A DNA stretch of 64,000 bases from Candidatus Eiseniibacteriota bacterium (lineage in GTDB: Bacteria; Eisenbacteria; RBG-16-71-46): the NCBI GenBank assembly GCA_963707915.1, contig OY970178.1:416001-480000 (forward strand), read 5' to 3'. The translations under genes were made by a program, and so were the position numbers. This document shows, one piece after another, positions 18,865 to 41,720 of this stretch. Positions within the stretch are counted from its first letter, which is position 1; every line of letters starts with the position of its first letter. The notes under the pieces were generated by a model. The model had not been told where the DNA came from and searched no databases. It saw nothing but the letters and a program-made list of their open reading frames with translations.

Positions 18865-19174
18865 GATTCAGGATTTCGAACCGGGTCGCCCGCTGGCTGC
18901 GAAGGATGGATGCGCTTCGGCAGGCGATCAGCACCGCGGCCTGGGTCTGCGCCAGCGTCAAGGTAGTGGCAACGGGAGGGTCCGCGCCCCGGTGCCGGAC
19001 AGCGGCGCCCGCCCGCCCGAGATGTCCGCCCGCCGCTCGGGAAAGCCATGCGCGGATCCGTGCGGGCCTCGCCTATCTCCCGCCCGGGTGTGACGCGGAG
19101 GCCGTTGCTGTCTCCAAGCGGTGTCCACGATGCCGTGCACGTCCACCCGCCTGCATCCCGATGTGAGGAGCGTC

Positions 19175-22100
19175 ATGTCTGAAATCCACCTGGGGATATC
19201 CGGCCGTCGTTGCGCCCTCGGGCTGTTCCTGCTGTTGTCGCTCGGCGTTGTCTTCGTGGGGATCCAGGCCTGGTCCCGGGACAGGCACCACGGACGACCG
19301 CGCTCCTCGCCGCTGCCCGGGGGAAGGGCGATTCCGGCCAGTTGGTGGGCCCAGGTCCAGCAGCGCATTGCGGCCGAGGAGTACAACGCGACCCCACAAG
19401 CGGGCTTGCTCCAGGCCCCGAATCGCGCGCAGGGCTTCCGTACGATCTTCACGAGCGAGGGAATCGAGGTCGTGCCCCGGGTCGGTGCGGCGGAATGGCG
19501 CCTGCGCTGGCGAACCGTGTCGTGGGGCCGGGAAGGCGCACTTGCCACCGTGGCCACCGTGCCCCCTCGCGCACAGGAGGCGCGGGTCGAGTACGAGCGC
19601 GGGCCGCTCGTCGAGTGGTACGAGAATCGGCCCGAGGGGGTCGAGCAGGGTTTCACGATCTCGGGCCGTCCGCGAGGGGAAGGCGGGGTGCGCATCCGGG
19701 GGCGGTTCAAAGCCGAGGGATTCGAGCTGCAGCCCGCCGCGAACGAGCGAGGCCTGACGTTGCGGAACCGCGTGGATGCAGCGGTGCTCACGTACGCCGG
19801 GCTGGTCGCGCGGGACGCGCGCGGAATCGAGCTGCCCTCGCGACTTGACCTGCGGGGAAGCGACGTCGAACTGGTCGTCGACGACCGGAGCGCGCGTTAC
19901 CCCGTCACGATCGATCCGCTGCTCTCGGCCCCTTCGTGGACGCACGAGGGCGACCTGGCCAATGCCCAGTACGGCTTCTCGGTGGCGACGGCGGGCGATG
20001 TGAACGCCGACGGCTTCAGCGACCTGCTCGTGGGCGCCCCGGGCTACGACAACGGTGCCCTGAAGAGCCTCGGTCGCGCGTTCCTCTACCTGGGTGCGGT
20101 CGACGGCCCGTCCGTGGTCGCCGATTGGAGCGCGCAAGCCGGCTTCCTCGGCGGTCCGGGCGCGTTCGGGGAGTCGGTGGCGTCGGCGGGCGACGTGAAC
20201 GGCGATGGCTACTCCGATGTGATGATCGGGGCGCCCCAGATCTCGAACGGTCCGGAGGCCTCCGAGGGGCACGTGTACCTGTGGCTCGGCGGACCGAGCG
20301 GTGGCGCAGGAGGTGCCTCCGGAATGGGCGCCAACGGCACGGCAGCGAACGCCGACTGGTTCGCCCAGGCCGACCTGCACGACGCGCGCCTCGGTTACTC
20401 GATCGCGTTCACCGGCGACCTGAATGGTGACGGCTACGACGACGTCGCACTCGGCGCGCCCGGCTACTCGAACGGTGAAGCGAGCGAGGGCATGGTGTTC
20501 GTATGGTTCGGCGCCGCCACCGGCTTGGGAGCCAATGGGACGCCCGCGAACGCCGACTGGTCCGCCCAGGGCAACGCGGCGAACATCGCGTTCGGCCACT
20601 CGGTCGCGGGCGCCGGCGACGTGAACGCGGACGGCTACGCCGACCTGCTGGTGGGCGCACCGCTCGCCAACTTCGCGTTCCTCTACCTGGGCAGCGCCAC
20701 CGGGCTGGGCGCCCCGGGCACGCCGCTCAACGCCGACTGGTCGGCGAACGGCACGCAGGCCGGCGCGCAGTTGGGTTACAGCGTGGCGACGGCCGGCGAT
20801 GTCAATGCCGACGGATATTCCGACGTGATCATCGGCGCGCCCTACTACGACGATCCGACGCTCGACGAGGGCAAGGCGTTCGTCTGGCTCGGCGGACCGA
20901 GCGACCTCGGCGCCAATGGCAACCCCGCGAACGCGGCGTGGTCGTATCGCGGAGGCACCAACGCGGCAAGATGCGGATGGAGCGTGGCGACGGCGGGCGA
21001 CGTGGACGGCGACGGGTTCGCCGACGTCGTCGTCGGCGTCCCCGGGTACTCGGGCGGCCAGGACAGTGAAGGGCGCGTGGTGGCGTTCCGCGGCTCGGGC
21101 TCGGGGCTGGGCACGCTGTCGTTCTGGAGCTACCAGAGCAACCAGTCGGGCGCGCAGCTCGGCGCGTCGGTCGCGACGGCCGGCGACGTCAACGGCGACG
21201 GGTTCGCGGACATCGCCGTCGGCGCCTGGCTCTTCCACGGCGACCTCTCCGACGAGGGTCAGGCGGCCGTGTTCTTCGGCCGCGCCTACGGGCCTGAGAC
21301 AACGGCGTCCTGGATCGGCGAGAAGAACGTGGCCGGGGCCCGGCTGGGCGAGCGCGTGGCTGCCGCGGGCGACGTGAACGGCGACGGCTACAGCGATGTC
21401 CTGGTGGCCGCGCCCTACTATGACGGCGGCAACGCGGACGAGGGGCGGGTCTACCTGTTCGTCGGACAGCCCACCGGGCTGGCGCTGAACCACTCGTGGA
21501 GCGCCGAGGGCAACCAGACCTCCGCGTTCCTCGGCGGCGGGATCGGCGCGGCCGGGGACGTGGACAACGACGGCTACGACGATGTGCTGATCGGCGCCCC
21601 CCTCTACGACAGCGGCGGAATGCAGGACAACGGCGCGGTGTTCCTGTGGCGCGGCGGGCCCGCGGGGCTCGGCGTGGACGGCACGCCTGCGAACGCGAGC
21701 TGGAGACAGGACGGCACGCAGAGCGGCGAGTACCTCGGCCTGTCCGTGTCCGGTGCGGGCGACGTGAACGGGGACGGGTTCGCCGACGTGGTCGTGGGCG
21801 GCTACGGGTGGAGCAACGGCCAGGCGGGCGAGGGACACGCGCTCCTCTTCCTCGGCGCCAGCACTGGCCTGGCGGCCGCACCCGCGTGGTCGGCCGAGGG
21901 GAACCAGGCGGGGATGAGGTTCGGCTACACCGTCGCCAGCGCGGGCGACGTGAACGCCGATGGGTTCGGCGACGTGATCGTCGGCGCACCCGAGTACTCG
22001 GGGGGGCAGGCTTCGGAGGGCCGCGCGTACGTGTTCCTGGGCGTACAGGGCGGGCTCGCGGTCGTCGCGCAGTGGACTGCCGAAGGGAACGTGGCCCAGG

Positions 22101-23338
22101 CCTATTTCGGGCACTCCGCGGCCTCGGCGGGTGACGTGAACGGCGACGGCTACTCCGACGTGATCGTCGGCGCCTACGGCTACGATGGCGATCAGGTGGC
22201 CGAGGGGCGCGCGTTTGTCTACCACGGCTCCGCCGTGGGAGTCGGCGCCGCCCCCGCCTGGACCGCGGAAAGCAACCAGTCGGCCTCGCAATTCGGCATC
22301 TCCGTCTCGTCGGCAGGAGACGTGAACGGGGACGGCTACAGCGACATCGTGGTGGGCGCTCCCGGTTACCAGACCGGCGGCGTGTCCACGGGAAGCGCCT
22401 TCATCTGGCTCGGAGGCTCCAGCGGGCTGGGCGCGAACGGTTCGCCGCTCAACGCCGACTGGAACGACAACGGCGCCCAGTTGGGCGTCCAGGGCATGAG
22501 CTTCGGTGACGCGGTCGCATGCGCGGGCGACGTGGACGGCGACGGCTTCAGCGACGTCATCATCGGCGCGCCATACGCCGACGACGGCGAAGTGGATGAG
22601 GGCGCCGCGTTCGTGTTCTACGGGAACCTCGGTCACGGCATGGACCGCGCGGTGCAGCAGCGGCGCCACGACGACGCCAGCCGTGTCGGCCTGCAGAACT
22701 TCTCGAGCTCGGAGACGGCGTTCCGCATCCGCTCGCTCGCGCGCAGTGCCGGCGGCCGGGCGCACGTCCGGCTCGAGTACGAACTCCGCTCGCTCGGGGG
22801 GCCGTTCGAGCCGGGCAACGCCGGGCGAAGCCCGGCATGGAGCTCGACCGGGGTCCCGGGCGCGCGGGGGAGCGTGATCGCGCTGGACGACTACGTCGGG
22901 CTGCCGGAGGGGGGGGGTGTGATCCGCTGGCGCACGCGCGTGGTGACCGATTCTCCGCTATTCCCGCACGGCCCGTGGCTCTCGATCCCCGGCAATGGCC
23001 GTACGGAGGGCGACATCCGGCTGTTGAACGGCGTGCTGGCCGTCGGTCCACTCGCCGCCGGGGAGCTGTCGTTCGCGCTCGCCGGTCCGAACCCGTTCCG
23101 CGACCGTCTCGCGCTGTGCTTTGTCCTGCCCGCGCCCAGCCATGTACGGCTCGAAGTGTTCGATGCCGGCGGCCGCAGAGTGACCACGCTGGTGAACGGT
23201 GCGCTGCCGGCGGGAGTGCACGCAGCGGCCTGGAACGGACGAGACGACGCCGGGCATCCGTCGCCCACCGGGATCTACTTTGCGAGGCTCACCGCGGGTT
23301 CGGTTTCGCGCACGTTGAAGACGATTCGCGTCAGCTAG
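19175..23338 (+). CDS. Large secreted FG-GAP (integrin-alpha-like) repeat protein with FlgD-Ig C-terminus
   Basis: 14 AGDVNGDGxxD...GAP-type repeats; N-terminal EWY..GVEQGF..YPVTIDP domain; GAGGAG RBS before ATG 19175. Confidence 0.9.
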   Translation: MSEIHLGISGRRCALGLFLLLSLGVVFVGIQAWSRDRHHGRPRSSPLPGGRAIPASWWAQVQQRIAAEEYNATPQAGLLQAPNRAQGFRTIFTSEGIEVVPRVGAAEWRLRWRTVSWGREGALATVATVPPRAQEARVEYERGPLVEWYENRPEGVEQGFTISGRPRGEGGVRIRGRFKAEGFELQPAANERGLTLRNRVDAAVLTYAGLVARDARGIELPSRLDLRGSDVELVVDDRSARYPVTIDPLLSAPSWTHEGDLANAQYGFSVATAGDVNADGFSDLLVGAPGYDNGALKSLGRAFLYLGAVDGPSVVADWSAQAGFLGGPGAFGESVASAGDVNGDGYSDVMIGAPQISNGPEASEGHVYLWLGGPSGGAGGASGMGANGTAANADWFAQADLHDARLGYSIAFTGDLNGDGYDDVALGAPGYSNGEASEGMVFVWFGAATGLGANGTPANADWSAQGNAANIAFGHSVAGAGDVNADGYADLLVGAPLANFAFLYLGSATGLGAPGTPLNADWSANGTQAGAQLGYSVATAGDVNADGYSDVIIGAPYYDDPTLDEGKAFVWLGGPSDLGANGNPANAAWSYRGGTNAARCGWSVATAGDVDGDGFADVVVGVPGYSGGQDSEGRVVAFRGSGSGLGTLSFWSYQSNQSGAQLGASVATAGDVNGDGFADIAVGAWLFHGDLSDEGQAAVFFGRAYGPETTASWIGEKNVAGARLGERVAAAGDVNGDGYSDVLVAAPYYDGGNADEGRVYLFVGQPTGLALNHSWSAEGNQTSAFLGGGIGAAGDVDNDGYDDVLIGAPLYDSGGMQDNGAVFLWRGGPAGLGVDGTPANASWRQDGTQSGEYLGLSVSGAGDVNGDGFADVVVGGYGWSNGQAGEGHALLFLGASTGLAAAPAWSAEGNQAGMRFGYTVASAGDVNADGFGDVIVGAPEYSGGQASEGRAYVFLGVQGGLAVVAQWTAEGNVAQAYFGHSAASAGDVNGDGYSDVIVGAYGYDGDQVAEGRAFVYHGSAVGVGAAPAWTAESNQSASQFGISVSSAGDVNGDGYSDIVVGAPGYQTGGVSTGSAFIWLGGSSGLGANGSPLNADWNDNGAQLGVQGMSFGDAVACAGDVDGDGFSDVIIGAPYADDGEVDEGAAFVFYGNLGHGMDRAVQQRRHDDASRVGLQNFSSSETAFRIRSLARSAGGRAHVRLEYELRSLGGPFEPGNAGRSPAWSSTGVPGARGSVIALDDYVGLPEGGGVIRWRTRVVTDSPLFPHGPWLSIPGNGRTEGDIRLLNGVLAVGPLAAGELSFALAGPNPFRDRLALCFVLPAPSHVRLEVFDAGGRRVTTLVNGALPAGVHAAAWNGRDDAGHPSPTGIYFARLTAGSVSRTLKTIRVS

Positions 23339-23827: not shown

Positions 23828-26719
23828 GTGTCGGCCGTGCGCCTGGTCGTAGAGCTCGGACTGCTGCTGCTATCGGGTGCCACGTGTCTGCCGCGTGCGA
23901 CCCTCGCGGTCGCGGCGCCCGCCGCGGTGGCCGAAGCGGACTCGCTCGCCCGCGGAGGCCATGTGCCTGCCGCGCTCGCCACACTCGATCGCCTCCTGCG
24001 TCAGCTGCACCCGCCGGCCGATGCGCCCACGCGCCGCCGGGCCTTGCTCCTGGAGGCGCGCCTGCTGGCGCTCAGCGGGCATTCCGGGGCGGCCGAGGCC
24101 GCGGCGCGCGAGGCGCTTGCGGGCGCCGAGGCCACGGGCGACTCGGCCCAGCTCGGCGAGGCGCTGCGCTGGATGGCCTATGGCGCCGGCGCGCAGGGCC
24201 GGGTCGCCGACGCGGCCGCGCTCTGGTCTCGACTCCTGAACGTGGCGCGGGCGCGCGGGGACCGCGAGCGAGTGGGCTACGCCCATTATGGGCTGGGCTA
24301 CGCCGCCCAGATTGCCCGGGACCTGCCGCGGGCGCGTCGCGAGTACGCGCACGCGGCGGAGGTGTTCCGCGCGCTGGAGCTGGCGCCCTTCGACCAATGG
24401 GCCCTGGCGGCCCACGCCAGCGCCTGTGCTTCGCTCGGAGATTTCGGCGCCGCCCGCGCCGGCTACCGCGAGGCGATCGCGCTGGGCCGGCGGCGCGGGG
24501 ATGCGATGGGCGAGGGGAGGGCGCTCAACGATCTCGGCGCGCTCGAGTTCGAGTTCGGAGATCCGGCGTTGGCGCTCGGGCTCTACGAGCGGGCGCTGGT
24601 CGTCGCTCGTGGCCGCGGCGATGCGGCCGGCGCTCTCACTCCGCTGCGCAATGTCGCTGTGGCGCTCACATACCTCGGCCACCTCGACGATGCCGCCGCG
24701 CGGATCGAAGAGGGTCTCGGGACGAGCGGCCGGCTCGGACTGGCGGTGCAGACCTCCGAGCTGCTGGAGCAGCTGGCGTACGTCCGCGGCCAGCAGGTGC
24801 GCCTGCACGAGGCCACCCGGCTGTTCCGTCGCTGCATCGCTCTGGACGACTCGCTGGGACGGCAGGACAACGCCGAGCCGGTGCTCGGTTTGGCGGCCTG
24901 CCTCGGGGTGATGGACAGCACCGACGCCGCGCTCGAACTGCTTCGCACCCGTCTCGAGCCTCGGCGCGGGGAGCTCGGCGAGTACGATCGGCTGAAGCTC
25001 GACCGGCAGTGGGCGGAGCGGCTGGAGGAAGCCGGACGCTACCCCGAGGCGCTGGCCCATTCCCGCGCCGTGGAGCGGGCGGCGCAGCGGCTCGGGGTCG
25101 CGAGCATTCAGTTCTCGGAGCGCACGACGGCGGCGCGATGCGAACGGGCGCTTGGCAGGCCGGACCGAGCGCTCGCTCAGCTTCGGCGCGGGGCGCGCGA
25201 TTGGGAGGAATTGCGCACCACCCAGCGCGAGCCCGAGTGGCGCGAGCGCCTCGGCGACGAGCGCCGCGAGCTGTACACCGAGCTGGCCGACCTGCTGATC
25301 GAGTACCCGGCCGAACTCCCGGCCGGGGAGCGGATACGACGCGCGCTCGAGGCCGTTCAACGATTCAAGGCGCGCACGCTCTACGAACGGGCGCGCGGGC
25401 CGGCGGCAGCACCTCTGCCACCGGCAGCGTACGAAGCGGTTGGCTTGCGCGAACTGCAGACCGCTGTGCTTCGACCGGGCGAGGCGCTGGTGGATGCCTA
25501 CATCGGCCGCCGGTTGGGCATCGTCTTCATCGTCACGCGCGATACCTGCCTGGCGCGGCGGGTGCCGATCGCCGCCAGTGGTCTGGGGATGCGGCTGCGG
25601 CGGTTCCGGGAGTACCTGGCCACCCCGCCTGCCGGCGCCGGGCTCGACGGCGCGGCGCCCGGGTCCGCCGCATCGCACTCGCTCCTCACGCCCGCTGCGA
25701 AAGCGCGGCGGACGATGCTGGCCAGCGCCGCTCGCGGGATACGCCGCGAGTTGTTCGGGGATGATGCACCATGGCTCGCGCGCCAGCGTCGGCTGCTGTT
25801 CTGCCTCGACGGTCCGCTCACGGCGATTCCGCCGGGTGTGTTGATCCCGGGGAGCCCGGAGGCCGGTCCGCTCATTGGGAGCCCCGAGGTGGTGGTCGTG
25901 CCCTCGGCAACGTTGCTCGCCGAGTCGCGGCGATCTGCCACGGGCCCGCTTGTGCGCAAGCCCGGTGCCCTGCTGTTACTGGCATCGGGCTCGGGTCCAG
26001 GGCGCACCGTCCTGCGCGGCGCCGAACGCGAGGCGCGCTGGTTGGCCGGGCGATTCACGACCATCGCATCCGAGAGCCTGGCCCGCATCGCGAAGGGCCC
26101 GGATTCCGCTCCGCCCCGCTGGTTGCGCGGGTGCGCGGCGCTCCACGTGGCCGCCCACACGGAGCTCGATGACCAGCGTCCATGGCGGTCGGGTATCCGG
26201 CTCCCCGGGGTCGCGGATGCGTCCGGGGATTCGCTGCTGCGTGCCGGACGCATCGCGCTGCTGCGGCTTCCGGTCGGGCTTGCGGTGTTGTCCGCATGCG
26301 AGACGGCCGGTCAGCGCGCGCCATCCGGCGAGGGCATGCTCGGGCTTTCCAGCGGCTTCCTCGCTTCCGGCATCCCCGCGGTCGTCGCCAGCCTGTGGCC
26401 GGTCAGCGATCTTGCGACCGCCCAGCTCATGGAAGTCTTCTACGATGGACTCGACCGCGGCCTGAGTGTGGCCGCGGCGCTGCGCCGGGCGCAGCTCGCG
26501 CTGGCCGGTCGCGACCCGACCCGGGACCCGTTCTACTGGGCGGGCTTCGTCGTGATCGGCGAGGGTGACGCCCGCGCCGTGCTGCGACGCCGCCGGATCC
26601 CATCGCCGGCCAACGCGGCGGCAGCGCTTGTCCTTGCGCTGGGGGGGATTGCGGCCGTGCGCGGATGGCGAAGGCGGACGCGTGTGACGGGGCGTGTCGC
26701 TGGGACTCCAATGCTATGA
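23828..26719 (+). CDS. TPR-CHAT (caspase-like) protease with signal peptide and C-terminal TM anchor
   Basis: TPR helices, KARTL, LHVAAH and VLSACETA dyad, GEG, VVASLWPVSD, PFYWAGF; hydrophobic N- and C-termini. Confidence 0.9.
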   Translation: MSAVRLVVELGLLLLSGATCLPRATLAVAAPAAVAEADSLARGGHVPAALATLDRLLRQLHPPADAPTRRRALLLEARLLALSGHSGAAEAAAREALAGAEATGDSAQLGEALRWMAYGAGAQGRVADAAALWSRLLNVARARGDRERVGYAHYGLGYAAQIARDLPRARREYAHAAEVFRALELAPFDQWALAAHASACASLGDFGAARAGYREAIALGRRRGDAMGEGRALNDLGALEFEFGDPALALGLYERALVVARGRGDAAGALTPLRNVAVALTYLGHLDDAAARIEEGLGTSGRLGLAVQTSELLEQLAYVRGQQVRLHEATRLFRRCIALDDSLGRQDNAEPVLGLAACLGVMDSTDAALELLRTRLEPRRGELGEYDRLKLDRQWAERLEEAGRYPEALAHSRAVERAAQRLGVASIQFSERTTAARCERALGRPDRALAQLRRGARDWEELRTTQREPEWRERLGDERRELYTELADLLIEYPAELPAGERIRRALEAVQRFKARTLYERARGPAAAPLPPAAYEAVGLRELQTAVLRPGEALVDAYIGRRLGIVFIVTRDTCLARRVPIAASGLGMRLRRFREYLATPPAGAGLDGAAPGSAASHSLLTPAAKARRTMLASAARGIRRELFGDDAPWLARQRRLLFCLDGPLTAIPPGVLIPGSPEAGPLIGSPEVVVVPSATLLAESRRSATGPLVRKPGALLLLASGSGPGRTVLRGAEREARWLAGRFTTIASESLARIAKGPDSAPPRWLRGCAALHVAAHTELDDQRPWRSGIRLPGVADASGDSLLRAGRIALLRLPVGLAVLSACETAGQRAPSGEGMLGLSSGFLASGIPAVVASLWPVSDLATAQLMEVFYDGLDRGLSVAAALRRAQLALAGRDPTRDPFYWAGFVVIGEGDARAVLRRRRIPSPANAAAALVLALGGIAAVRGWRRRTRVTGRVAGTPML

Positions 26720-27306
26720 CTGGACCGGAATCACGACAGGTCCCCGATGCAGAGCTGGTGCGTCTTGCGCAGGCCGAACGGGGCCACGCGCGGGGACGCG
26801 CGGCGGCCGAGCAGCTCTTCGGTCGCTATCATGGGCGGGTCTTCGCGTGGTGCCTGAGGCGGGTGCGAAATCGGGACGAAGCCTACGACCTGGCGCAGGA
26901 CGTGATGTTGAATGCCTACAGGGCGCTGCCGGCCTTTGCCGGCGAGTCGAGCTTCTCGACCTGGCTCTACGTGATCGCGCGCAATCGTTGTGGGCGTGCG
27001 ATGAGGAGGATGAGCTTGGTGCGCGACGAGGCGCAGGAGCCGGACGCCCTGCCTTCCAGCGGAGCCTCTCCCGATGACGAGGTGTCGGGGCGATTGGAGC
27101 AGGAGGCCGTGCTCGACCTGATGCGCCGGCACCTCGAGCCGCGGGAGCAGATCGCACTCTGGCTGCGCTGCTACGAGGGGATGGACGTGGCGCAGATCAC
27201 TGAAGCACTCGGTATTGCCACGGCCTCGGGCGCACGTGGCATGTTGCAGACGGCGCGACGCAAGCTGCGCGCGGCGCGCGAGCACCCGTCCACGCAAGGG
27301 GAATGA
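26716..27306 (+). CDS. ECF RNA polymerase sigma factor
   Basis: DLAQDV, FAGESSFSTWLYVIARN, region-4 HTH; ATGA overlap with the CHAT gene. Confidence 0.9.
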   Translation: MTGPESRQVPDAELVRLAQAERGHARGRAAAEQLFGRYHGRVFAWCLRRVRNRDEAYDLAQDVMLNAYRALPAFAGESSFSTWLYVIARNRCGRAMRRMSLVRDEAQEPDALPSSGASPDDEVSGRLEQEAVLDLMRRHLEPREQIALWLRCYEGMDVAQITEALGIATASGARGMLQTARRKLRAAREHPSTQGE

Positions 27307-27310
27307 CGCC

Positions 27311-28036
27311 ATGGACGACCGCTGTCCTTCCGATCCGGAATTCGCGGCAATGATCGAGCTTCCCGAGGGCGATACCGGACGCGCTCACGTGGAACGCTGT
27401 CCGCGCTGTCAGGCGCGCCTGATCGACCTGAACGCATTCCTTCGGCCCGCCACAGAAGCGGAGATCCCCGGACTCGCGTCCGTCGAACGGCGGATGGCAG
27501 CCGCGCTCGAAGCCGAGATGGAACGGGACGCGGCGTCCGCGGCCCCGCGTCCCGTCCCATCCGGGCCCGCCGATACGGCTTCAGCGCGGCCGACCCGCAC
27601 CGGGGCGCTCGTGCACCTCTGGAACCGGCCGGCCTGGGTGATGGCTGCCGCTGCTGCCGCGCTCGTGATGGTCGCCGGAGTGTTCGCGCTGTGGCCGCAT
27701 GCGCCGGGCGGCGATGCACTGAGAGGGACCTCGGGTCCCGGCAACGCCGCGAACCGTCAGGTGCACGTGTTCCCGGCCCGCATCGAGGGCGCGCGGGCCA
27801 TCCTGCGCTGGAGGGCGGTCCCCGGTGCCGACTCGTACCTGGTGAGCCTGTTCGGCTCCGACCTGGCCGAACGTGGGCGGCTCGGCCCGCTGGCCGGTAC
27901 GGCGATCGGACTTCCGCTCGACACGCTTGCCGCCGGGGGCGGACCGGCCGGACCGCTGGTGTGGCAGGTCATCGCGCTGAGAGCCGGGGACGAACTCGCA
28001 CGCTCGGCGCTGCAGACGGCGCTGCCAGAACGCTAG
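27311..28036 (+). CDS. Putative zinc-binding transmembrane anti-sigma factor
   Basis: HVERCPRC (HxxxCxxC), one TM helix, then a C-terminal extracytoplasmic domain starting DALRG. Confidence 0.8.
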   Translation: MDDRCPSDPEFAAMIELPEGDTGRAHVERCPRCQARLIDLNAFLRPATEAEIPGLASVERRMAAALEAEMERDAASAAPRPVPSGPADTASARPTRTGALVHLWNRPAWVMAAAAAALVMVAGVFALWPHAPGGDALRGTSGPGNAANRQVHVFPARIEGARAILRWRAVPGADSYLVSLFGSDLAERGRLGPLAGTAIGLPLDTLAAGGGPAGPLVWQVIALRAGDELARSALQTALPER

Positions 28037-28412
28037 TGAACAAGACTCTCTTGGGCACACTTGGCATGATGGCCCCCGGTTGGACGGTGCCCGAGTTGGC
28101 GGGCGCTCGTGGCTCCATGGGGTGCGGCTGCCCCGCCTGCCCCGATCAGGCGCCGGACCGCCGTATCAGGGAAGCGTGCGGGCCGTGGCCTCGCTCCAGG
28201 CGGCGATCGGAGCCGCAGTCTGAGCGCGGAGCAGCGCGCCGGGATGCTCCCGTTCCATGCTTTCGGGACAGGGACGCTCCATCTGGCGCTCCGCTCGCGG
28301 TCCCGGCGCCGCGATCCCGTGCCGGCGTGGCTGGGATTTGCCGGGCCGGGAGAGTCGGTCCTGGAGTAGAATAGAGGTCCCAACGAAGCCCTCTGACCCG
28401 GGAGGTCGCGCC

Positions 28413-29873
28413 ATGCGCAAGGCTGGAACGTTCCTTCTCGTCTGTGCCGGGATTCTGTGCCTGCTGCACGAGACCGTCGACGCGCAAGTGCCGCCTGCTC
28501 CCCGAGGCGCAGAGCAACCAATGCTGGCTTCGCTGGATTGGCGCAACGTCGGCGGACACAACTATGTCAGCGGCGTTCGCGACCAGGGACAGTGCGGCTC
28601 CGACTGGGCCTTCGTGACGGTCAGCATGCTCGAGTCGGCGCTGATGATCCGGCTCGGACTGCCCGACGTCGACCTGGACTACTCCGAACAGCGCCTCCTT
28701 TCCTGCGGCATTCCCTATAGCGGCTGTAATGGCGGCCAACCGTCCGGTGCTCTGAACTACCTTCGGGACACCGGCACGCCGCGCGAGACGTGCTTCCCGT
28801 ACCAGGCGAATGACCAGGTGCCCTGCAGTGCGGCTTGCGCGGACGCCGCGAACCAGATCCGGCGTCTGCAGAGCTGGCGGTGGGTCGGCGGGTACACGGG
28901 AGCGCCCATCGATTCCCTGAAGGCGGCGCTCGCTTACGGGCCGATCGGGGTCTGGATGGACGTCTACGACGACTTCTACCACTACGCGGGCGGAGTCTAT
29001 TGGCATGTTCCGGGAGGAAGCCCCGTGGGTAGCCACTATGTCCTCGTCATCGGCTATGACGACGCCCAGCAGTACTGGATCGTGAAGAACAGCTGGGATA
29101 CCTGGTGGGGCGACCAGGGCTTCTTCCGCATCGCGTATGTGAACAATTGCAGGTTCGGGGACTGGGCGACGGCATGCACGGCGGCGATTCCCCCGATCAA
29201 CTGGTGCAACCTGCAGTGGCCGCCGGCGTTGAACGCGACCGCCGGTGTGGCGAGCGACCTGGTCTTCGGGCAGCTGTGGATCGATGTCGTGACGAGTCAC
29301 CCGGGCGCGACGCCCGAACTCGTGGCCGAACTGGGCTACGGACCGGACGGGAGCGATCCGTCCGCGGACCCGGCCGGATGGCAGTGGACGCCGGCCGCGT
29401 ACAACCTCGACGTCGGCGCCAACGACGAGTTCATGGCCAGGGTCACCGTGGCCACGCCCGGGGAGTACGACTACTGCTACCGTTACTCGTACTTCGGCGG
29501 ACCGTGGCGGTACGCCGACCTGGACGGCACCAACAACGGTTACTCGCCGGCCCAGGCCGGGGCGCTCACCGTGACCTCGGCGAGTGCGGCGGAGGACGGA
29601 CTTCCGGCACAGCTGTCGTTCGCGCTGCAGGGCGGAAACCCGTTCGTCGGATCCGCGCGATTCCGCCTCGGACTGCCGCAGCGGACCAGGGTCGAGCTCT
29701 CGATCCACGACGTGACCGGCCGGCGCCTGGCGACACTGGCGTCGGGCGAACTCGACGCCGGCTATCACACGCTGACCTGGGAGGGCGAAGGCACGGTGCA
29801 GGCGGGAGCGTACTTCGCCCGGCTCCACGCCGACGGCAGATCGTTCACACGGAAACTCACGGTGCTGCGTTAG
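28413..29873 (+). CDS. Secreted papain-fold (C1) protein with catalytic Cys replaced by Asp, a central beta-domain and a T9SS-type C-terminus
   Basis: LDWRN, DQGQCGSDWAF, GSHYVLVIGY, WIVKNSW; NWCNLQWP...GYGP...NDEF domain; GNPF...DVTGRR...GAYF. Confidence 0.85.
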   Translation: MRKAGTFLLVCAGILCLLHETVDAQVPPAPRGAEQPMLASLDWRNVGGHNYVSGVRDQGQCGSDWAFVTVSMLESALMIRLGLPDVDLDYSEQRLLSCGIPYSGCNGGQPSGALNYLRDTGTPRETCFPYQANDQVPCSAACADAANQIRRLQSWRWVGGYTGAPIDSLKAALAYGPIGVWMDVYDDFYHYAGGVYWHVPGGSPVGSHYVLVIGYDDAQQYWIVKNSWDTWWGDQGFFRIAYVNNCRFGDWATACTAAIPPINWCNLQWPPALNATAGVASDLVFGQLWIDVVTSHPGATPELVAELGYGPDGSDPSADPAGWQWTPAAYNLDVGANDEFMARVTVATPGEYDYCYRYSYFGGPWRYADLDGTNNGYSPAQAGALTVTSASAAEDGLPAQLSFALQGGNPFVGSARFRLGLPQRTRVELSIHDVTGRRLATLASGELDAGYHTLTWEGEGTVQAGAYFARLHADGRSFTRKLTVLR

Positions 29874-30466: not shown

Positions 30467-31113
30467 GGCTCAGAACGGGGAATCGCACCAGGTCGATTCG
30501 GTGCTGCCAGGGGGAGGCCGGCTCATTGGCGAGCGGGGGGACCCCGGTCGGAGCGCGGGTCTAGGAGAGGGGGTCTCCGCACATTCGCGTTTCCTTCGCG
30601 GCCCCGGAGAAATGGGTCCCACTGGCAGGTGCCGTTCCGAATGGGCCCCCTGGTTTGAGTCCTGTGGATGGGACCCAGGGAGCGGTGGTCATCGGGACGG
30701 GGGCTTCTGCAAACCGCTGGCAGGCTCGCCCCGCCTTCGTGTGCGGCGGTCCTGAAATCGCGCTCCTGGTCCGTCCGATGACCGCAGTACGCTCCGGGTC
30801 GAGTACTTTGCTCCGCCTGCCCGAGCGTGACCGCATGGCGCGCTCCATGCGTAGTGGTGGGCTCTTCTTGCTCCGCAGCGAACTAATCGTAAGCTCCTCC
30901 GACGGTCGCCTGTCGCTTTCCACCTCCCCCGAGCCTGGGCCGCTGCCGGGTACCCCTTACCCGGAGGCTTGCCATGAACCGCACCAGGTCATTCTTCTTC
31001 GTCTGCGCGGGGTTGTTTGGCATCGCGCTCTTGCTGCCGCGCCCGGCGGCTGCGGCCTGGCCCACCGATCCTAGTGAACCGCGCCGGGTTCTCCGGAGAG
31101 CTCCGGACTTGAG

Positions 31114-32342
<1,229 letters not shown>

Positions 32343-35308: not shown

Positions 35309-35575
35309 ATGAAGACCAGCAAGTTCACGGTCGAGCAGATTGCCCAGGCCCTGAAGCGGGTCGAGGGCGGGGTGGTGGTCGGGGAGGTCTGCCGGGAGCT
35401 GGGCATCACCGAGACCACGTTCTACCGCTGGAAGAAGAAGTTCGGTGGGATCTCCTCACCGGAGCTGCGGGAGCTGCGGCAGCTGCGGGACGAGAACCGA
35501 CGCCTCAAGGCCGTCGTCGCGGACCTGACGCTGGACCGGACGATGCTGCAGGAGGCGCTCCGAAAAAAGTGGTAA
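35309..35575 (+). CDS. IS3 transposase OrfA
   Basis: SKFTVEQI, TFYRWKKKFGG; A6G slippery site at 35563-35569. Confidence 0.9.
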   Translation: MKTSKFTVEQIAQALKRVEGGVVVGEVCRELGITETTFYRWKKKFGGISSPELRELRQLRDENRRLKAVVADLTLDRTMLQEALRKKW

Positions 35576-36450
35576 GGCCGGTCGAGCGCCGCGCCGTGAC
35601 CCGCTGGATGCAGGAGGCCTACCGCGTGAGCTTGCGCAAGGCCTGCCGCGCCTCGGGAACGGCAATGTCCTCGATGCTGTACCGCCCGGTCCGGCCGGAT
35701 CAGACCCCGCTGCGCCAGAGGATCAAGGAGATCGCGACGACCCGGGTGAGCTACGGGTATCGCCGCGTGCAGGTGTTGCTGCGTCGGGAAGGCTGGAAGG
35801 TGAACGCCAAGCGGACGTACCGGCTATATCGGGAAGAAGGGCTCTGTCTGCGGTCGAAACGGCCCAAGCGGCGCCGCAGTGCGGTGCGCCGGCAAGAGAC
35901 ACTCACGGCCACCGGGACCAACCAGCTCTGGGCGATGGACTTCGTGAGCGATGCGCTGGCGGATGGCCGGAAGCTGCGGGTGCTGACGGTGCTCGACACG
36001 TTCACCCGCGAGTGCGTGGCCCTCGAGGTCAGCGGCTCATTCGGCGGCGCCGAGGTCGCCCGGGTGCTGACGCGCGAAGGTGTACGGCGCGGGTTGCCGG
36101 CGGTGATTCACGTGGACAACGGGACGGAGTTCACCTCGAAGGCGTTCGACCACTGGGCCTACGTCAATCACGTGCGGCTGGACTTCAGCCGTCCGGGCAA
36201 GCCGACCGACAACCCCTTCATCGAGAGCTTCAACGCCCAGCTGAGGCGTGAGTGCTTATCGCAACACTACTTTCTGTCTGTCATCGACGCCCGGGTGTCG
36301 CTCGACGCCTGGCGGGAGGAGTACAACAACCGACGGCCCCACGGGAGCTTGGGGCAGCGGACCCCGGCGGAGTATCGTGCCGAGGTCGAAGGAGCCGAGG
36401 CGCCCGAGGAACTCGCTTCGAGCGTGCCCGGCTGCTCCAGTGGCGGGTAG
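35569..36450 (+). CDS. IS3 transposase OrfB
   Basis: YGYRR, WAMDF, VDNGTEF, GKPTDNPFIESFN. Confidence 0.95.
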   Translation: MVRPVERRAVTRWMQEAYRVSLRKACRASGTAMSSMLYRPVRPDQTPLRQRIKEIATTRVSYGYRRVQVLLRREGWKVNAKRTYRLYREEGLCLRSKRPKRRRSAVRRQETLTATGTNQLWAMDFVSDALADGRKLRVLTVLDTFTRECVALEVSGSFGGAEVARVLTREGVRRGLPAVIHVDNGTEFTSKAFDHWAYVNHVRLDFSRPGKPTDNPFIESFNAQLRRECLSQHYFLSVIDARVSLDAWREEYNNRRPHGSLGQRTPAEYRAEVEGAEAPEELASSVPGCSSGG

Positions 36451-36507
36451 CGGATCAGGAACTCGCTTTGAGCGTGCCCGGCTGCTCCAGTGGCGGGTAG
36501 CGGATCA
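36408..36507. repeat. 50-bp tandem duplication of the IS right end
   Basis: 36408-36457 and 36458-36507 differ by one base. Confidence 0.95.
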
Positions 36508-36586
36508 AGAGCACGAGCTGGGGCCGCATCAAGGCGCTGTACCGGTAGCAGCGGTTGCACTGTGTGGAGGCCCCTAAGGAGACGCG

Positions 36587-37186
36587 ATGCCGAGGCTCAT
36601 CATGCAATTCGAACTTGACAGGTGCCCGCACTGCGCAGTCCACAGACCGAGGCTTGCCCGTGTATGGGCTACTACCACCACCGAACACTCGGGGGACCAT
36701 AGGCGCACGTGGGCTGTCTACTGCTGCGCGACCTGCGGCTCTCTCGTGACGGCGTGGGCGTACGGGGAGACGGGTGACGTAATCGATTGGTACCCCAAGC
36801 GTGCCGCAATTGAAGAGTCGGTGCCGAAGGAAGTAGCGCATTACCTCCAGCAGGCTCTGGATACGCTTCACTCACCGGATGGATCCATCATGCTCGCTGC
36901 TTCGGCGGTCGATGCCATGCTCAGGTTAAAGGGGTTGGTGGATGGTTCCCTCAACAGCCGAATCGACAAGGCTGCTAAGGACCATCTCATCACCGAGGAC
37001 ATGGCGCTCTGGGCTCACGACGTGCGGCTCGACGCGAATGCGACGCGGCACGTGGACCCACAGGCCTCTCCCCCCACTTTCGATGACGCCAAGCGAGTCG
37101 CGAACTTCGCCCAGACGCTCGCCGACCTTCTGTTCGTGCTCCCGGAGCGCGTGACACGGGGCCGCAAGTCTCCCTCGGATTCATAG
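36587..37186 (+). CDS. DUF4145-like (HEPN-related) protein with N-terminal zinc ribbon
   Basis: CPHC...CATC; SLNSRIDK, HDVRLDANATRH; AAGGAG RBS. Confidence 0.75.
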   Translation: MPRLIMQFELDRCPHCAVHRPRLARVWATTTTEHSGDHRRTWAVYCCATCGSLVTAWAYGETGDVIDWYPKRAAIEESVPKEVAHYLQQALDTLHSPDGSIMLAASAVDAMLRLKGLVDGSLNSRIDKAAKDHLITEDMALWAHDVRLDANATRHVDPQASPPTFDDAKRVANFAQTLADLLFVLPERVTRGRKSPSDS

Positions 37187-37215
37187 GCCGCTCCCCGCGA
37201 TTAGAGTTCTTGGCG

Positions 37216-37244
37216 TAGACGCCCTCCCCTGCCCGGCGTATCCT
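37216..37244 (+). promoter_or_regulatory. Putative sigma70-type promoter
   Basis: TAGACG-17 nt-TATCCT upstream of 37320. Confidence 0.4.
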
Positions 37245-37319
37245 TACTGCTGGCGGGAGTCGCTTGCCCCTGCGACCGGACCGCGCCCGCCCGGTCGGTT
37301 TCATCCTCGGAGGCCGCCA

Positions 37320-37934
37320 ATGCGTGCCGCTCGCTCTCTAGCTTGCGCTTTACCTCTCGCCTTCGCTCTGCTTCTTGCCGCAGGCGTCCACGGCGAGCCT
37401 CTTCAGGTCGGTCCGGGCTACTTCGGCCCCACCTCCCACCTAGTCAACTTCGACACTAGCCCGGGAGGAACGCAGATTCCCAACCACGCCGTCCTCGGAA
37501 GTATCTACGCCGAGTGGGGCGTCACCTTCGGGGCCAACGACGGGGTCACCAACTGGCCAAACATCGGGACGTCGCTGCCCAACATGGCGTGGGGAAGTTC
37601 TGACGGACTCGAACCGATTGACTGCCTCTTCCCTTCCGGGGTCTACGCGGTCGGTGCCTATGGCTTCGACTTCGCCTTGGAGGCCTTTGACTCGGAAGGC
37701 GGACTCATCTACCGCGTAGCCTACACAGACGGCACAGCGGGTCTCTACAGTCCCAATGAAATCGGGTTCCTAGGTATCGCCAGTGACGTCCCGATTCACC
37801 ACGCGCGCTTCTCGCGGTACTGGTCCGCCCAGTGGGCATTCGGCTTTGAAATTGACGACCTGCGTTTCACCACGGAGCAGCCGGTGCCCACGCGGTCCAC
37901 GACTTGGGGCCGCATCAAGTCCCTGTACCGCTAA
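37320..37934 (+). CDS. Secreted protein with C-terminal TTWGRIKSLYR motif
   Basis: Signal peptide; lectin-like beta domain (FLGI...IDDLRF); PVPTRSTTWGRIKSLYR*. Confidence 0.8.
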   Translation: MRAARSLACALPLAFALLLAAGVHGEPLQVGPGYFGPTSHLVNFDTSPGGTQIPNHAVLGSIYAEWGVTFGANDGVTNWPNIGTSLPNMAWGSSDGLEPIDCLFPSGVYAVGAYGFDFALEAFDSEGGLIYRVAYTDGTAGLYSPNEIGFLGIASDVPIHHARFSRYWSAQWAFGFEIDDLRFTTEQPVPTRSTTWGRIKSLYR

Positions 37935-37945
37935 CGGAGACCGTC

Positions 37946-38359
37946 ATGCACAAGGCAAGAGCGTTCTTCTTCGTCTGCGCGGGAATCTTCCTGCTTGCCA
38001 TCACCTACCACCTTGGAGCGCGGAGTGCGGGGGCGCAGGCGGGTGCCGCCACTGCGAGTGAGGTGGCCGTCGTTTCTGGAACCGCTCATGACATGGACGT
38101 TCTTCCGCTTCCCACATACTCCGATGGCACGGTAGCCAGTGAGAGCGAGTGTCGCTGGATAGTGAGCCTGTACAGCGTGACGTATTATGCTCACTGGGGC
38201 CAGTCGCTCTGTTATACAACAGGGCTCACGGTGCATATTCAGAGTTCTAACGGAGACAACACCGTAAGCTATCTGATCATCGCCACCCGGGGGGCGGCTC
38301 CGCCGACTCCCGCGCAGAGTGTCTCCATCGGCCGACTGAAGGCGAAGTACGCGAAGTGA
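37946..38359 (+). CDS. Small exported protein with FFFVCAG leader and SIGRLKAKYAK tail
   Basis: GGAGA RBS; MHKARAFFFVCAGIFLLA...; PTPAQSVSIGRLKAKYAK*. Confidence 0.75.
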   Translation: MHKARAFFFVCAGIFLLAITYHLGARSAGAQAGAATASEVAVVSGTAHDMDVLPLPTYSDGTVASESECRWIVSLYSVTYYAHWGQSLCYTTGLTVHIQSSNGDNTVSYLIIATRGAAPPTPAQSVSIGRLKAKYAK

Positions 38360-38430
38360 ACGGCGGCTCAAGCCTCGGCGAGTGACCGCGCACCTTGGGT
38401 CATGCAACAAGGACGTGCAAGGAGGAAGAT

Positions 38431-38925
38431 GTGAGCGAAGCGACTTCCGTCACCAGGAGTAGTCCGCAGCCGCCTAGTCTCGAACACCAACTTGAACTTA
38501 TCGTGTCCTCGCGAGTAGGTGTGGACCAGGTAACATGGACCATCTTCAGCATCTTCTGGGCAGCACAGATTCTTCTCATTGGCGTGTTGTTTCAGGGGTC
38601 CGGCTTTCCGCCCAATCCTATGCTTGGGCTCATCGCTTCCGTTCTGGGTATCTTTATGTCGGTGGCTTGGGCTGTCGCACAGAGTCGAGCCTTGTTGCAC
38701 CTTGAGCGATTAGAACATCTCATGGAGTCGGTTGAGAGTGAGCTGCAGCAGACGGGGCATCTTCGCTTTGAGCATCGCATACTCAAGAATCCGACATTTC
38801 CTGGCGTGAAGGCGAGAACCGTGATGCGCATGTGCGCCTGGGGTGCCGCATGTGTCTGGCTAGTGAGCGCTGTGGCGTTCTTGATCTGCGTAATGTGCCC
38901 CGGCGGGTGCTGCCAGCCCCAGTAG
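38431..38925 (+). CDS. Small 3-TM membrane protein, function unknown
   Basis: AAGGAGG RBS before GTG 38431; three hydrophobic helices; lower GC. Confidence 0.7.
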   Translation: MSEATSVTRSSPQPPSLEHQLELIVSSRVGVDQVTWTIFSIFWAAQILLIGVLFQGSGFPPNPMLGLIASVLGIFMSVAWAVAQSRALLHLERLEHLMESVESELQQTGHLRFEHRILKNPTFPGVKARTVMRMCAWGAACVWLVSAVAFLICVMCPGGCCQPQ

Positions 38926-39090
38926 GGGGGCCGCACGGCACCTAGAGGGCCGGGACGCGGGTGGGCGGTGCGGTGTGCTTGGGACCTGAGAGGACGCTGA
39001 GACCGGGACTCGAACGGCGAAGGAAGGACAGCGGCATCAGAGACCGCTGCCCGAACGCGGGGCACACATATGGAAGGTAGGGAGAGAGCG

Positions 39091-39801
39091 ATGATTCCGG
39101 ACTGGTTGTTGACTCTCATCTTGGCCGCATTCAGCCTGATTGCGGGAGGTGTGGGGTTCTATTTCTGGAGGGAGGGGGGGAAGACTGCCGGTCTCTGGAT
39201 CTGGTTCGCGGCGGGGGTCTTGCTTCTGCTTTGGGTGACCCTCCAGATTCAGAAGGGCATTCTCACTGGACGGAATCTCGCTGACACGGCCGTATTCCAC
39301 GGACGACTCGTCCCCGCGAACGAGGAGACGCCCAACGTGCCGGTAGATGCCTGGGTGCTCATGCTCGGGGACAGCTTGCAGGTGCGGACGAGAACCGCGA
39401 GCAACCTACGAGTGTTTACTAAGAATGGCCGCCCATTCTTGAAGCTACGAGTCGTCGATGGCCAACTCCTGGTGTCGGCGTCGGTGATTGACAGCAAGGG
39501 TGACCGCATCGTCCAGATTGTCGACAACGAATTTCAGGCCAGCCAAGAGCGTGCATTCAACCCAAAACAGCCGGATCCAAGTACTCTGGTTGTGCGCGAT
39601 TGCGACGGCGTCGAAGTGCTCAACATTCGTTACGTGAACCCTCGTGTGATTCGAATCGTGGGTCGTTTCTGCCTCCCAGGATACGACGCGCCTGTTGAGA
39701 TTCTCGCGGCCGACGGGATACGTTGGCCTGGGGGAGGAGGCTTGAGTAGCATGACTCTGGAAATGGCGGGCGGAGGGAAGGGTAGCGTGATTGCGTTCTG
39801 A
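39091..39801 (+). CDS. Hypothetical protein, two N-terminal TM helices plus a beta-rich domain
   Basis: Open frame; GGAGAG upstream of ATG 39091; lower GC. Confidence 0.7.
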   Translation: MIPDWLLTLILAAFSLIAGGVGFYFWREGGKTAGLWIWFAAGVLLLLWVTLQIQKGILTGRNLADTAVFHGRLVPANEETPNVPVDAWVLMLGDSLQVRTRTASNLRVFTKNGRPFLKLRVVDGQLLVSASVIDSKGDRIVQIVDNEFQASQERAFNPKQPDPSTLVVRDCDGVEVLNIRYVNPRVIRIVGRFCLPGYDAPVEILAADGIRWPGGGGLSSMTLEMAGGGKGSVIAF

Positions 39802-39958
39802 GTCGTCGCTTTTGGCTAGAACAGGAATATCTCAAGGTCACGGGGCCGGAGCCAGCATGACGGGCAGTGGTCCGTTGTTGTGCAGCGCAGGTTTGCGCGG
39901 CTGAGTCGCGAGTCGGCGAAGCGGTGTGGCGGAGAGACTCACGAAAGCAGGGGGGGCC

Positions 39959-40052
39959 GTGGCTGGTAGACGAGCAAGGTGGCGGTGGTCGGCGGCGCTG
40001 CTGGTGGTCGCCGTCGTGGGCGGCACGGTCGGGTGCGCATCCCAGGAGGATC
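39959..40052 (+). pseudogene. 5' fragment of a lipoprotein gene truncated by IS3
   Basis: MAGRRARWRWSAALLVVAVVGGTVGCASQED (basic region, hydrophobic core, lipobox Cys) ends exactly at the IS. Confidence 0.5.
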
Positions 40053-40125
40053 TGACGTAGCCCCCGGAAGCTGACACAGAACGAGTAGCCAGTCCTCTGC
40101 TAGCCTGAACGGCACGGAGGATCTC

Positions 40126-40395
40126 ATGGCGAGCACGGGGAAGCGTTACAGCGAAGAGCAGATCATCGCGATCCTGAAGGAGGCGGACAGCGCCGGGAAC
40201 GTCGGCGAGCTGATCCGGCGCCACGGGATCTCCGCCCACACCTACTACCGCTGGAAGAGCAAGTACGGTGGCCTGGAGGTGAGCGAGGCGCGGCGGCTCA
40301 AGCAACTCGAGGACGAGAACCGCCGACTTAAGCGGATCGTCGCCGACCAGACGCTGAACATCCAGATCCTGAAGGAAGCGCTGGGAAAAGACTGA
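40126..40395 (+). CDS. IS3 transposase OrfA
   Basis: RYSEEQIIAILKE, YYRWKSKYGG, LEDENRRLK; GGGAAAAG near the end. Confidence 0.9.
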   Translation: MASTGKRYSEEQIIAILKEADSAGNVGELIRRHGISAHTYYRWKSKYGGLEVSEARRLKQLEDENRRLKRIVADQTLNIQILKEALGKD

Positions 40396-40475
40396 CGACG
40401 GCTGCGGCCCGGCGCGCCGCCGTCCTGGAAGCCCGTTCACGCCATGCCGGACTCTCGGAGCGACGCGCCTGCACG

Positions 40476-41243: not shown

Positions 41244-41270
41244 TCTGTACCAGCGTTGGGGGCTACGTCA

Positions 41271-41575: not shown

Positions 41576-41644
41576 CAAATGCGTAGCAAGGGCACGCAGG
41601 GCAGGGGCGCATGTAGCAGGCAGGATTCCCTAACCGCTTGCGGT

Positions 41645-41720
<76 letters not shown>

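Follow-up and report, generated by a model that had tools for sequence, protein, structure and literature searches.

The stretch of DNA analysed here, which we call the window, comprises 64,000 nucleotides of contig OY970178.1 from a Candidatus Eiseniibacteriota bacterium (positions 416,001 to 480,000 of the forward strand). Its G+C content is about 71%, and the host genome is a single contig of 3.62 Mb. Within the window lie three tightly linked genes that encode, in order, a tetratricopeptide repeat (TPR) protein with a caspase-like CHAT domain, an extracytoplasmic function (ECF) σ factor and a single-pass anti-σ factor (Table 1). The original prediction, made from the sequence of the window, held that the protease is exported and cuts the anti-σ factor when a ligand activates it, and it described the genes as joined by an ATGA overlap and a 4-bp gap. 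We found both junctions in the sequence: the TGA of the CHAT gene overlaps the σ ATG at 26716, and the σ stop codon, which ends at 27306, is followed by a 4-bp spacer and the anti-σ ATG at 27311. For the CHAT gene a GTG at 23837, with a GGAG 8 nt upstream, is a likelier start than 23828. Longer open reading frames (ORFs) starting at 26665 for the σ gene and at 27215 for the third gene find no support, since the alignments with homologues begin at the first residue of the shorter versions. The 490-bp gap upstream of the trio held no convincing gene for a small secreted peptide.

Table 1. The trio, its functional elements and its two neighbours, in window positions.
Feature	Position	Strand	Basis
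TPR-CHAT protease, 963 aa	23828..26719	+	Pfam CHAT 2.8e-47 (residues 651-912) and TPR_12
Catalytic region of the protease: His773 and His777 (26144-26158; His777 codon 26156-26158), Cys824 (codon 26297-26299)	26144..26299	+	Translations HVAAHT, LSACET
Predicted C-terminal membrane anchor of the protease	26609..26665	+	Hydropathy, residues 928-946; AlphaFold2 (AF2) helix, residues 927-954
ECF σ factor, 196 aa	26716..27306	+	Pfam Sigma70_r2 1.7e-16 and Sigma70_r4_2; NCBIfam TIGR02937 sigma70-ECF 1.1e-22
Single-pass anti-σ factor, 241 aa	27311..28036	+	No Pfam family; AF2, Foldseek, conserved zinc ligands
A-L-R-G, candidate site-1 cleavage motif (Arg138 codon 27722-27724)	27716..27727	+	Conserved Arg, disordered linker
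Upstream neighbour: FG-GAP repeat protein with FlgD_ig / type IX secretion system (T9SS)-type C-terminal tail	19121..23338	+	Pfam FG-GAP 1.1e-110, FlgD_ig 4e-10
Downstream neighbour: papain-family (C1) cysteine protease with FlgD_ig / T9SS-type tail	28257..29873	+	Pfam Peptidase_C1 1.5e-47, FlgD_ig 8.5e-06

The protease begins with a signal-like segment (residues 1-37), followed by about 11 TPR-like helix pairs (approximately residues 40-520), the CHAT domain, a C-terminal membrane helix (approximately 928-946) and a basic tail. Its AF2 model, with a mean predicted local distance difference test score (pLDDT) of 83.6 and a predicted TM-score of 0.79, shows a TPR-like solenoid and a CHAT fold. 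We compared the protein with a set of 35 full-length CHAT rows, which represent 34 distinct loci (two near-identical to each other). The predicted catalytic dyad, His777 and Cys824, is unchanged in all 35 rows, as are His773, Asp861 and Gly911, and the His and Cys motifs align with those of DdvA chain 8rot_B. The invariance of the dyad indicates that catalysis is under selection.

The topology of the protease was assigned from hydropathy, the helices of the AF2 model and comparison of homologues. Hydropathy marks residues 1-21 at the N-terminus and 928-946 at the C-terminus, the latter with RRRR before it and RRR after it, and AF2 makes both hydrophobic termini helical (residues 4-15 and 927-954). 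As foreseen, the signal-like N-terminus is a family trait: all 35 rows start with a hydrophobic segment, and many also have a positively charged n-region together with an A-x-A site, for example AHA|A, ASA|A or VRA|Q. The predicted C-terminal helix followed by RRR is present in the window protein and is not universal. We found a hydrophobic helix with basic residues over threshold in 26 of the 35 rows, two rows were borderline and seven lacked it, stopping 15-29 residues past the domain. We read the helix as a plain membrane anchor. A C-terminal sorting tag (PEP-CTERM and similar) was rejected because there was no NCBIfam match, no common motif marks the tails and the helix is missing from 7 of the 35 rows; a lipoprotein signal was rejected because residue -1 before Cys20 is Thr. 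About 17 residues separate the CHAT domain from the start of the anchor, which would keep the catalytic domain near the membrane on its outer side. Hydropathy, sequence comparison and the AF2 model thus predict a TPR-CHAT protein that is exported, usually anchored, and carries its catalytic domain at this distance from the membrane.

If this topology were wrong, the TPR-CHAT protein could be cytoplasmic and tail-anchored, and could cut the σ factor or the cytoplasmic part of the anti-σ factor, as Csx29 cuts Csx30. The window protein does carry a Glu within its N-terminal hydrophobic core, basic residues flank the C-terminal helix on both sides, and export was called from the three kinds of evidence given above. 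However, the N-terminal hydrophobic segment is found in every row, and the seven helix-less rows fit a soluble periplasmic protein. These seven also have the basic cluster that precedes the helix in the others, and this cluster is therefore part of the domain end. In addition, the nearest solved relative, DdvA, is described as periplasmic, and the invariant Arg of the anti-σ factor described below lies on the outer side of the membrane. We regard a cytoplasmic protease as hardly credible.

The third protein matched no Pfam family, and its best NCBIfam hint, 'antisigma' (E 0.005), fell under the cut-off of that model. The original prediction had given it a cytoplasmic HxxxCxxC motif, one membrane helix and an outer domain with ALRG in an exposed linker, and sequence and AF2 model agree with each of these. 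The model has a mean pLDDT of 80.9. Four N-terminal helices bear C5, H26, C30 and C33, and the protein divides into a putative cytoplasmic CHCC/zinc-binding anti-σ (ZAS) region (5-76, helical in the model over 8-76), the membrane helix (107-127), a linker (129-145, pLDDT <50) and an outer β-sandwich (150-238, pLDDT >90 over most of its length). The HxxxCxxC motif reads HVERCPRC. H26, C30 and C33 were scored as invariant and C5 as nearly so; in the wider family described below, HxxxCxxC is found in 111 of 142 representatives and missing from 31. The anti-σ factors of four loci (L026, L031, L040 and L042) have lost the HxxxCxxC ligands and retain the membrane helix, the Arg motif and the outer domain.

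The outer domain resembles fibronectin type III (Fn3). Foldseek matched its seven-strand β-sandwich to many Fn3 domains with target-normalised TM-scores of 0.5-0.66, and sequence profiles gave Fn3 at sub-threshold E-values of 0.1-0.5. Searches of the PDB with the anti-σ protein and its profiles returned no anti-σ structure and no DdvA. Nine giant proteins of 2,484-6,828 aa (P0011, P0015, P0029, P0032, P0048, P0071, P0079, P0103 and P0142) match the Fn3-like domain in 22-42 tandem stretches. This suggests that the Fn3 subtype of the anti-σ factor is also built, in repeated copies, into very large proteins that presumably lie at the surface.

The candidate cleavage motif falls within the stretch of low pLDDT, and its Arg138 lies 11 residues past the membrane helix. 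We examined its conservation with an exhaustive profile search of 1.84 billion representatives, which returned 12,656 proteins at E <=1e-3, 2,696 at 1e-10 and 733 at 1e-30. The alignment held 142 proteins of 200-280 aa, namely 141 of the 150 listed matches and one protein from a separate search; the nine giant repeat proteins, matched only via their Fn3-like repeats, were dropped from the 150. We found the motif Arg in 142 of 142 representatives, which had been chosen by a profile in which this Arg, one column in 236, was already invariant. The preceding Leu is present in 113 and the following Gly in 120 of them, giving a V-L-R-G consensus. In the linker columns around the Arg the commonest residue reaches just 15-30%, and the sole other column as invariant as the Arg is Trp167 of the Fn3 core. 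Across the family the Arg stands 8-18 residues (median 12) outside the membrane segment. Among 19 aligned relatives it is one of five invariant columns, and the acidobacterial anti-σ factors described below retain it within [V/A]-[Y/F]-R-[S/T] in place of V-L-R-G. The conservation of an LRG motif that had been anticipated thus centres on an Arg in a disordered juxtamembrane linker. Several clan CD enzymes, such as metacaspases, gingipain R and clostripain, are specific for Arg.

The trio recurs. In the host genome itself a second CHAT gene heads a paralogous trio with the same overlaps. A search of 41 related genomes with the third protein gave matches in 13 of them, at 29 places. We took 25 of the 27 places outside the host genome, leaving out two short partial matches, and scored CHAT by local tblastn. 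CHAT adjoins in 16 of these 25 loci: thirteen have the order CHAT-σ-anti-σ, two have σ-anti-σ-CHAT and one has CHAT-anti-σ with no σ gene detected. In this last locus (L037; G016:C14, 1364-5687) the CHAT match is followed by the anti-σ match after about 200 nt, and no σ gene was detected between them. Among the nine loci without CHAT, four (L033, L034, L035 and L043) are bounded on one side by a contig end and one (L047) matches weakly, through the C-terminal domain alone. The remaining four (L026, L028, L040 and L048) are pairs beside other genes, which include secreted proteins with the same tail as the neighbours in the window and, at L040, a subtilase. A search with the σ protein added three further trios of the same lineage, besides a copy of a locus already in the set.

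A profile search of 206 genomes of the phylum placed the anti-σ family in 117, with up to ten copies per genome (ten matches in G119). From the strongest matches we chose, without sight of the neighbouring genes, 20 loci from seven other families, each in a different genome. A CHAT-profile match stands beside the pair on the same strand in 19 of the 20, before the pair in 13 and after it in six, and in the twentieth the contig ends right after the anti-σ gene. Of these 19 CHAT genes, 15 run at full length in a single frame, a contig end truncates one, and three are in fragments or divided between frames. The CHAT genes of L127 (G119:C12), L132 (G055:C3) and L147 (G059:C67), which are frame-split or matched piecemeal, may be pseudogenes or assembly errors.

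Outside the phylum, two loci of Acidobacteria (Bryobacteraceae) have all three families with CHAT on the opposite strand, and in a third the anti-σ gene lies near a contig end (L053, L056 and L079). The acidobacterial CHAT protein bears a signal and is anchored at its C-terminus. The adjacency thus persists through gene reordering and recurs in a second phylum, which argues for a functional tie between the protease and the pair. In every locus examined the CHAT protein is encoded by a separate gene, with no fusion of TPR-CHAT to the anti-σ factor, and no longer, fused relative of the anti-σ factor came up in a word-index search, a result that carries little weight. A 1354-codon open frame around the anti-σ match at L126 was considered as a fusion and rejected: it has no CHAT match, and the end of the anti-σ factor lies in another frame.

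Both flanking genes in the window encode secreted proteins with a T9SS-type tail (Table 1), and the original prediction had named the flanking secreted genes as possible targets of the σ factor. Using a home-made profile for this tail, we found a tail-bearing ORF at 25 of 46 trio loci, with 32 such ORFs in total in 387 kb including the trios themselves; the same profile found 97 tail-bearing ORFs in the 3,624 kb of the host genome. ORFs with T9SS-type tails are thus enriched beside the trios. The FG-GAP and C1 protease genes are candidate members of the σ regulon. The window itself holds six of the 61 Pfam FlgD_ig matches of the genome (near 9224, 11830, 23111, 29655, 47625 and 59231), about six times the mean density of the genome.

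We compared the trio with solved relatives of its CHAT domain. A CHAT-only profile searched against the PDB gave DdvA (8rot/8rw5, 991 aa) as the best match at 5e-12, with separase at about 1e-6 and Csx29/craspase at 0.004-0.008. Foldseek with the CHAT model returned Csx29, DdvA and separases at 4e-13 to 1e-9, with 8eey_B (Csx29) on top at 4.2e-13. Searches with the whole protein were dominated by TPR matches, phmmer giving only TPR proteins and the full-length profile ranking DdvA 51st.

In Myxococcus xanthus, DdvA is a single-pass anti-σ factor whose CHCC zinc domain is accompanied by a long flexible linker and, in the periplasm, by a TPR-CHAT part bearing a His/Cys dyad (PMC11506125). Its authors propose that a signal induces cleavage of the linker in trans by CHAT as site-1 protease, after which RseP acts. 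A truncated DdvA without TPR-CHAT was lost in an RseP-dependent way; steric shielding was shown in this way, and proteolysis was not (PMC11506125). The fused architecture is reported there only in some Myxococcota and one Comamonas (PMC11506125).

Like DdvA/DdvS, the trio places an ECF σ factor beside a single-pass CHCC anti-σ factor, a TPR-CHAT dyad on the predicted periplasmic side and a flexible juxtamembrane linker. It differs in that TPR-CHAT is exported as a protein in its own right, with a signal and, in most members, a membrane anchor, and in that the outer domain of the anti-σ factor is a small Fn3-like fold, not TPR-CHAT. The neighbours differ as well, being T9SS-type secreted proteins here and cyclic-oligonucleotide-based antiphage (CBASS) or CRISPR genes at the DdvA locus. 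No cas genes stood among the annotated neighbours of the trio in the window, though no search aimed at cas genes was made. The split family also has the invariant Arg motif, and it forms hundreds of 50%-identity clusters, compared with a fused form reported from no more than some Myxococcota and one Comamonas. Literature searches, made in one library of papers, found no description of a split TPR-CHAT/anti-σ form. We conclude that the trio is a split variant of a known DdvA-type system and not a wholly new idea. Read as a 'Rosetta stone', the DdvA fusion supports a direct tie of CHAT to the outer side of the anti-σ factor here.

We then considered a predicted complex between the CHAT protein (residues 40-922) and the outer part of the anti-σ factor (residues 128-241). 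The prediction was returned as 'weak support' with a score of 0.45 (runs of 0.52, 0.45 and 0.41), and the best of three controls scored 0.00. Of 157 solved complexes 116 pass the same mark, as do 2 of 215 mismatched pairs; passes with scores of 0.60 or below account for only 18 of the 157 and for both of those mismatches. The runs, made with alignments of our own, agreed in at least 72% of contacts, with a partner pLDDT of at least 67. The complex of CHAT with the anti-σ factor, a check proposed with the original prediction, passes with all controls at 0.00; the pass is a weak one, and no contacts came with it.

Alternatively, the TPR-CHAT protein might be a co-receptor. It would then dock on the Fn3-like domain, in the way that RseB guards RseA or that the bulky TPR-CHAT part of DdvA sterically blocks RseP; a signal releases it, another protease or RseP acts, and the dyad serves autoprocessing or another substrate. 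DdvA without its TPR-CHAT part becomes an RseP substrate, so that shielding, as noted above, is what was shown in that system (PMC11506125), and the complex prediction speaks to binding only, and weakly. Against a co-receptor stand the dyad and its neighbouring residues, invariant in 35 of 35 rows, and the combination of an invariant Arg, a disordered linker and an L-R-G consensus, which looks like a P1 site of a clan CD protease and not like a docking surface. We consider the co-receptor distinctly improbable.

In regulated intramembrane proteolysis (RIP) of the canonical kind (RseA/DegS/RseP, RsiW/PrsW), a signal-activated site-1 protease first cuts a single-pass anti-σ factor on the outer side, and an M50 site-2 protease follows with a cut within the membrane. 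The account of the trio towards which we lean is a split DdvA/DdvS-type switch in which CHAT would be the site-1 protease, acting in trans and probably specific for Arg. In the cytoplasm, the zinc-binding domain of the anti-σ factor would hold the ECF σ factor at the membrane. The exported TPR-CHAT protein, tethered at its C-terminus in most members, would place its caspase-like domain just above the membrane, and its TPR array would meet a signal, probably a protein or peptide. CHAT would then cut the anti-σ factor after the invariant Arg of V-L-R-G, in the disordered linker 8-18 residues outside the membrane, and the cut would remove the Fn3-like outer domain. An RseP-type site-2 protease may finish the degradation and release the σ factor; a Peptidase_M50 (RseP-type) gene is present in the same genome (6.7e-57). 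The σ factor would probably drive its own operon and the neighbouring genes for T9SS-type secreted proteins. The linkage and domain features on which the original prediction was built are thus confirmed, and its mechanism is partly supported, having withstood each of its refuting conditions that could be computed; we infer the binding of the two proteins, the cleavage at Arg, the signal or ligand that activates the protease, and the regulon.

Several observations weigh against this switch. CHAT is found in 157 of the 206 genomes of the phylum, with up to 11 or more copies each, and since it is nearly ubiquitous, co-occurrence of CHAT and the anti-σ factor at the level of genomes is uninformative. 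The loci come from related genomes and are not independent, and the choice of the 142 representatives by a profile already carrying the Arg brings a mild circularity. The Arg is kept in seven of seven anti-σ factors with no CHAT in the fetched span (L026, L028, L033, L034, L035, L040 and L043), so that the motif does not need a CHAT protein encoded in cis. The genomes of these loci hold 2-11 CHAT matches each; either a CHAT protein encoded elsewhere serves them or another protease reads the Arg motif. The N-terminal half of the anti-σ factor has no detectable sequence relation to DdvA, and the kinship with DdvA is thus one of the CHAT domain alone. Dyad mutants of DdvA behaved as wild type, autoproteolysis was not shown and the signal is unknown, according to its report (PMC11506125). 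The complex score, a weak pass given without contacts, does not show where the Arg lies relative to the active site. Finally, dyad enumeration in 13 and then 34 upstream regions found no shared promoter motif above shuffled controls.

In another reading CHAT is an output of the circuit. The operon would be under the σ factor, the CHAT protein would, once exported, find its substrates among other envelope or secreted proteins (in maturation of T9SS cargo, for instance, or in a cell-death or defence response), and a housekeeping periplasmic protease would cut the anti-σ factor at the Arg. The Arg kept without a neighbouring CHAT favours this, as do the 157 genomes with CHAT against 117 with the anti-σ family and the setting of the trios among genes for secreted proteins (the 25 of 46 loci above); co-transcription with the σ gene would put CHAT in an autoregulated regulon. 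However, DdvA joins TPR-CHAT to the outer side of the anti-σ factor in one polypeptide, which argues for a direct tie, and the adjacency holds in both gene orders and in a second phylum. The complex prediction, weak as it is, passes with its controls at 0.00, and the membrane tether puts the catalytic domain beside the linker. We think it unlikely that CHAT is an output and not the trigger, and return to the switch with CHAT as site-1 protease.

Other known systems share parts of this switch. In the type III-E craspase the TPR-CHAT protein Csx29, which has the same overall fold, cuts the σ-binding Csx30 and so controls CASP-σ/RpoE (PMC10028731). Csx29 is cytoplasmic, Cas7-11-bound and RNA-activated, unlike the CHAT protein here with its conserved export signal; the relation in sequence is weak at the E-values of 0.004-0.008 given above, and Csx29 cuts after Leu or Met (PMC11506125). 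The original prediction had drawn its analogy to Csx29 and Csx30; the shared fold holds, and the closer published system, DdvA/DdvS, had been missed. Separase is alike in combining a TPR-like array and a CHAT-type caspase domain with the same dyad, and it cuts after Arg in an unstructured motif (PMC11506125). It differs in being a eukaryotic protein of the cytoplasm or nucleus, kept in check by securin and phosphorylation, and it lacks the link to a σ factor that the trio has.

Compared with canonical RIP, the proposed site-1 enzyme would be neither a DegS-type serine protease nor PrsW, being an operon-encoded caspase-fold cysteine protease with a fixed Arg-Gly site. ECF54 of Actinobacteria has CHAT, subtilase and carboxypeptidase genes near the ECF gene and no anti-σ factor, and proteolytic control is proposed for it (PMC8999054; PMC7826278). 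The trio is like ECF54 in having CHAT near an ECF σ factor, and the CHAT-less locus L040 has a subtilase beside the pair; it is unlike ECF54 in phylum and in its predicted ZAS anti-σ factor, Pfam-invisible as that is. Since the anti-σ family is invisible to Pfam, surveys of ECF σ factors would score these σ factors as lacking an anti-σ factor.

Hundreds of 50%-identity clusters, and several copies in a genome, make this a large family. What the present analysis adds is the Arg that never varies in the juxtamembrane linker, the Fn3-like fold of the outer domain, the occurrence of the trio in two gene orders, the variant from Acidobacteria and a measure of the kinship with DdvA. The DdvA study leaves open whether a periplasmic CHAT protein acts as site-1 protease of an anti-σ factor, and what triggers it. 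With protease and substrate in one dimeric membrane protein, cleavage of DdvA is hard to assay; here the proteins are separate, the candidate Arg is sharply defined and the substrate domain is small, which makes a cleavage assay straightforward. The enrichment of tail-bearing ORFs hints at control of secreted enzymes in an uncultured phylum rich in T9SS-type cargo.

A bolder version of the switch can be put forward as a speculation that we rather doubt. In it, Eisenbacteria and some Acidobacteria would run parallel, insulated channels, up to about ten per genome, in each of which a dedicated periplasmic CHAT protein would read a protein or peptide cue from outside through its TPR array, cut its own anti-σ factor at V-L-R|G in trans as an Arg-specific site-1 protease and switch on a local island of genes for T9SS-secreted enzymes. 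Were this so, no caspase-fold site-1 protease would have been demonstrated in ECF signalling before it, and the mechanism proposed for DdvA would gain the biochemical proof that it lacks.

The window also carries mobile elements downstream of the trio. An IS3-family insertion sequence lies 3 kb downstream (30989-32342, minus strand), with a transposase orfA (HTH_Tnp_1 2.4e-10) and, at the orfA/orfB junction, an Rfam ALIL frameshift pseudoknot (31948-32064, 110.6 bits). A second transposase gene with an integrase core (rve) at 35569-36450 is followed by a patch of lower G+C (0.60 at 38-40 kb, compared with about 0.71) whose ORFs have no Pfam family. A tRNA gene at 41648-41720 on the minus strand ends the low-G+C stretch, and the region 35569-41720 may be an island inserted at the tRNA.

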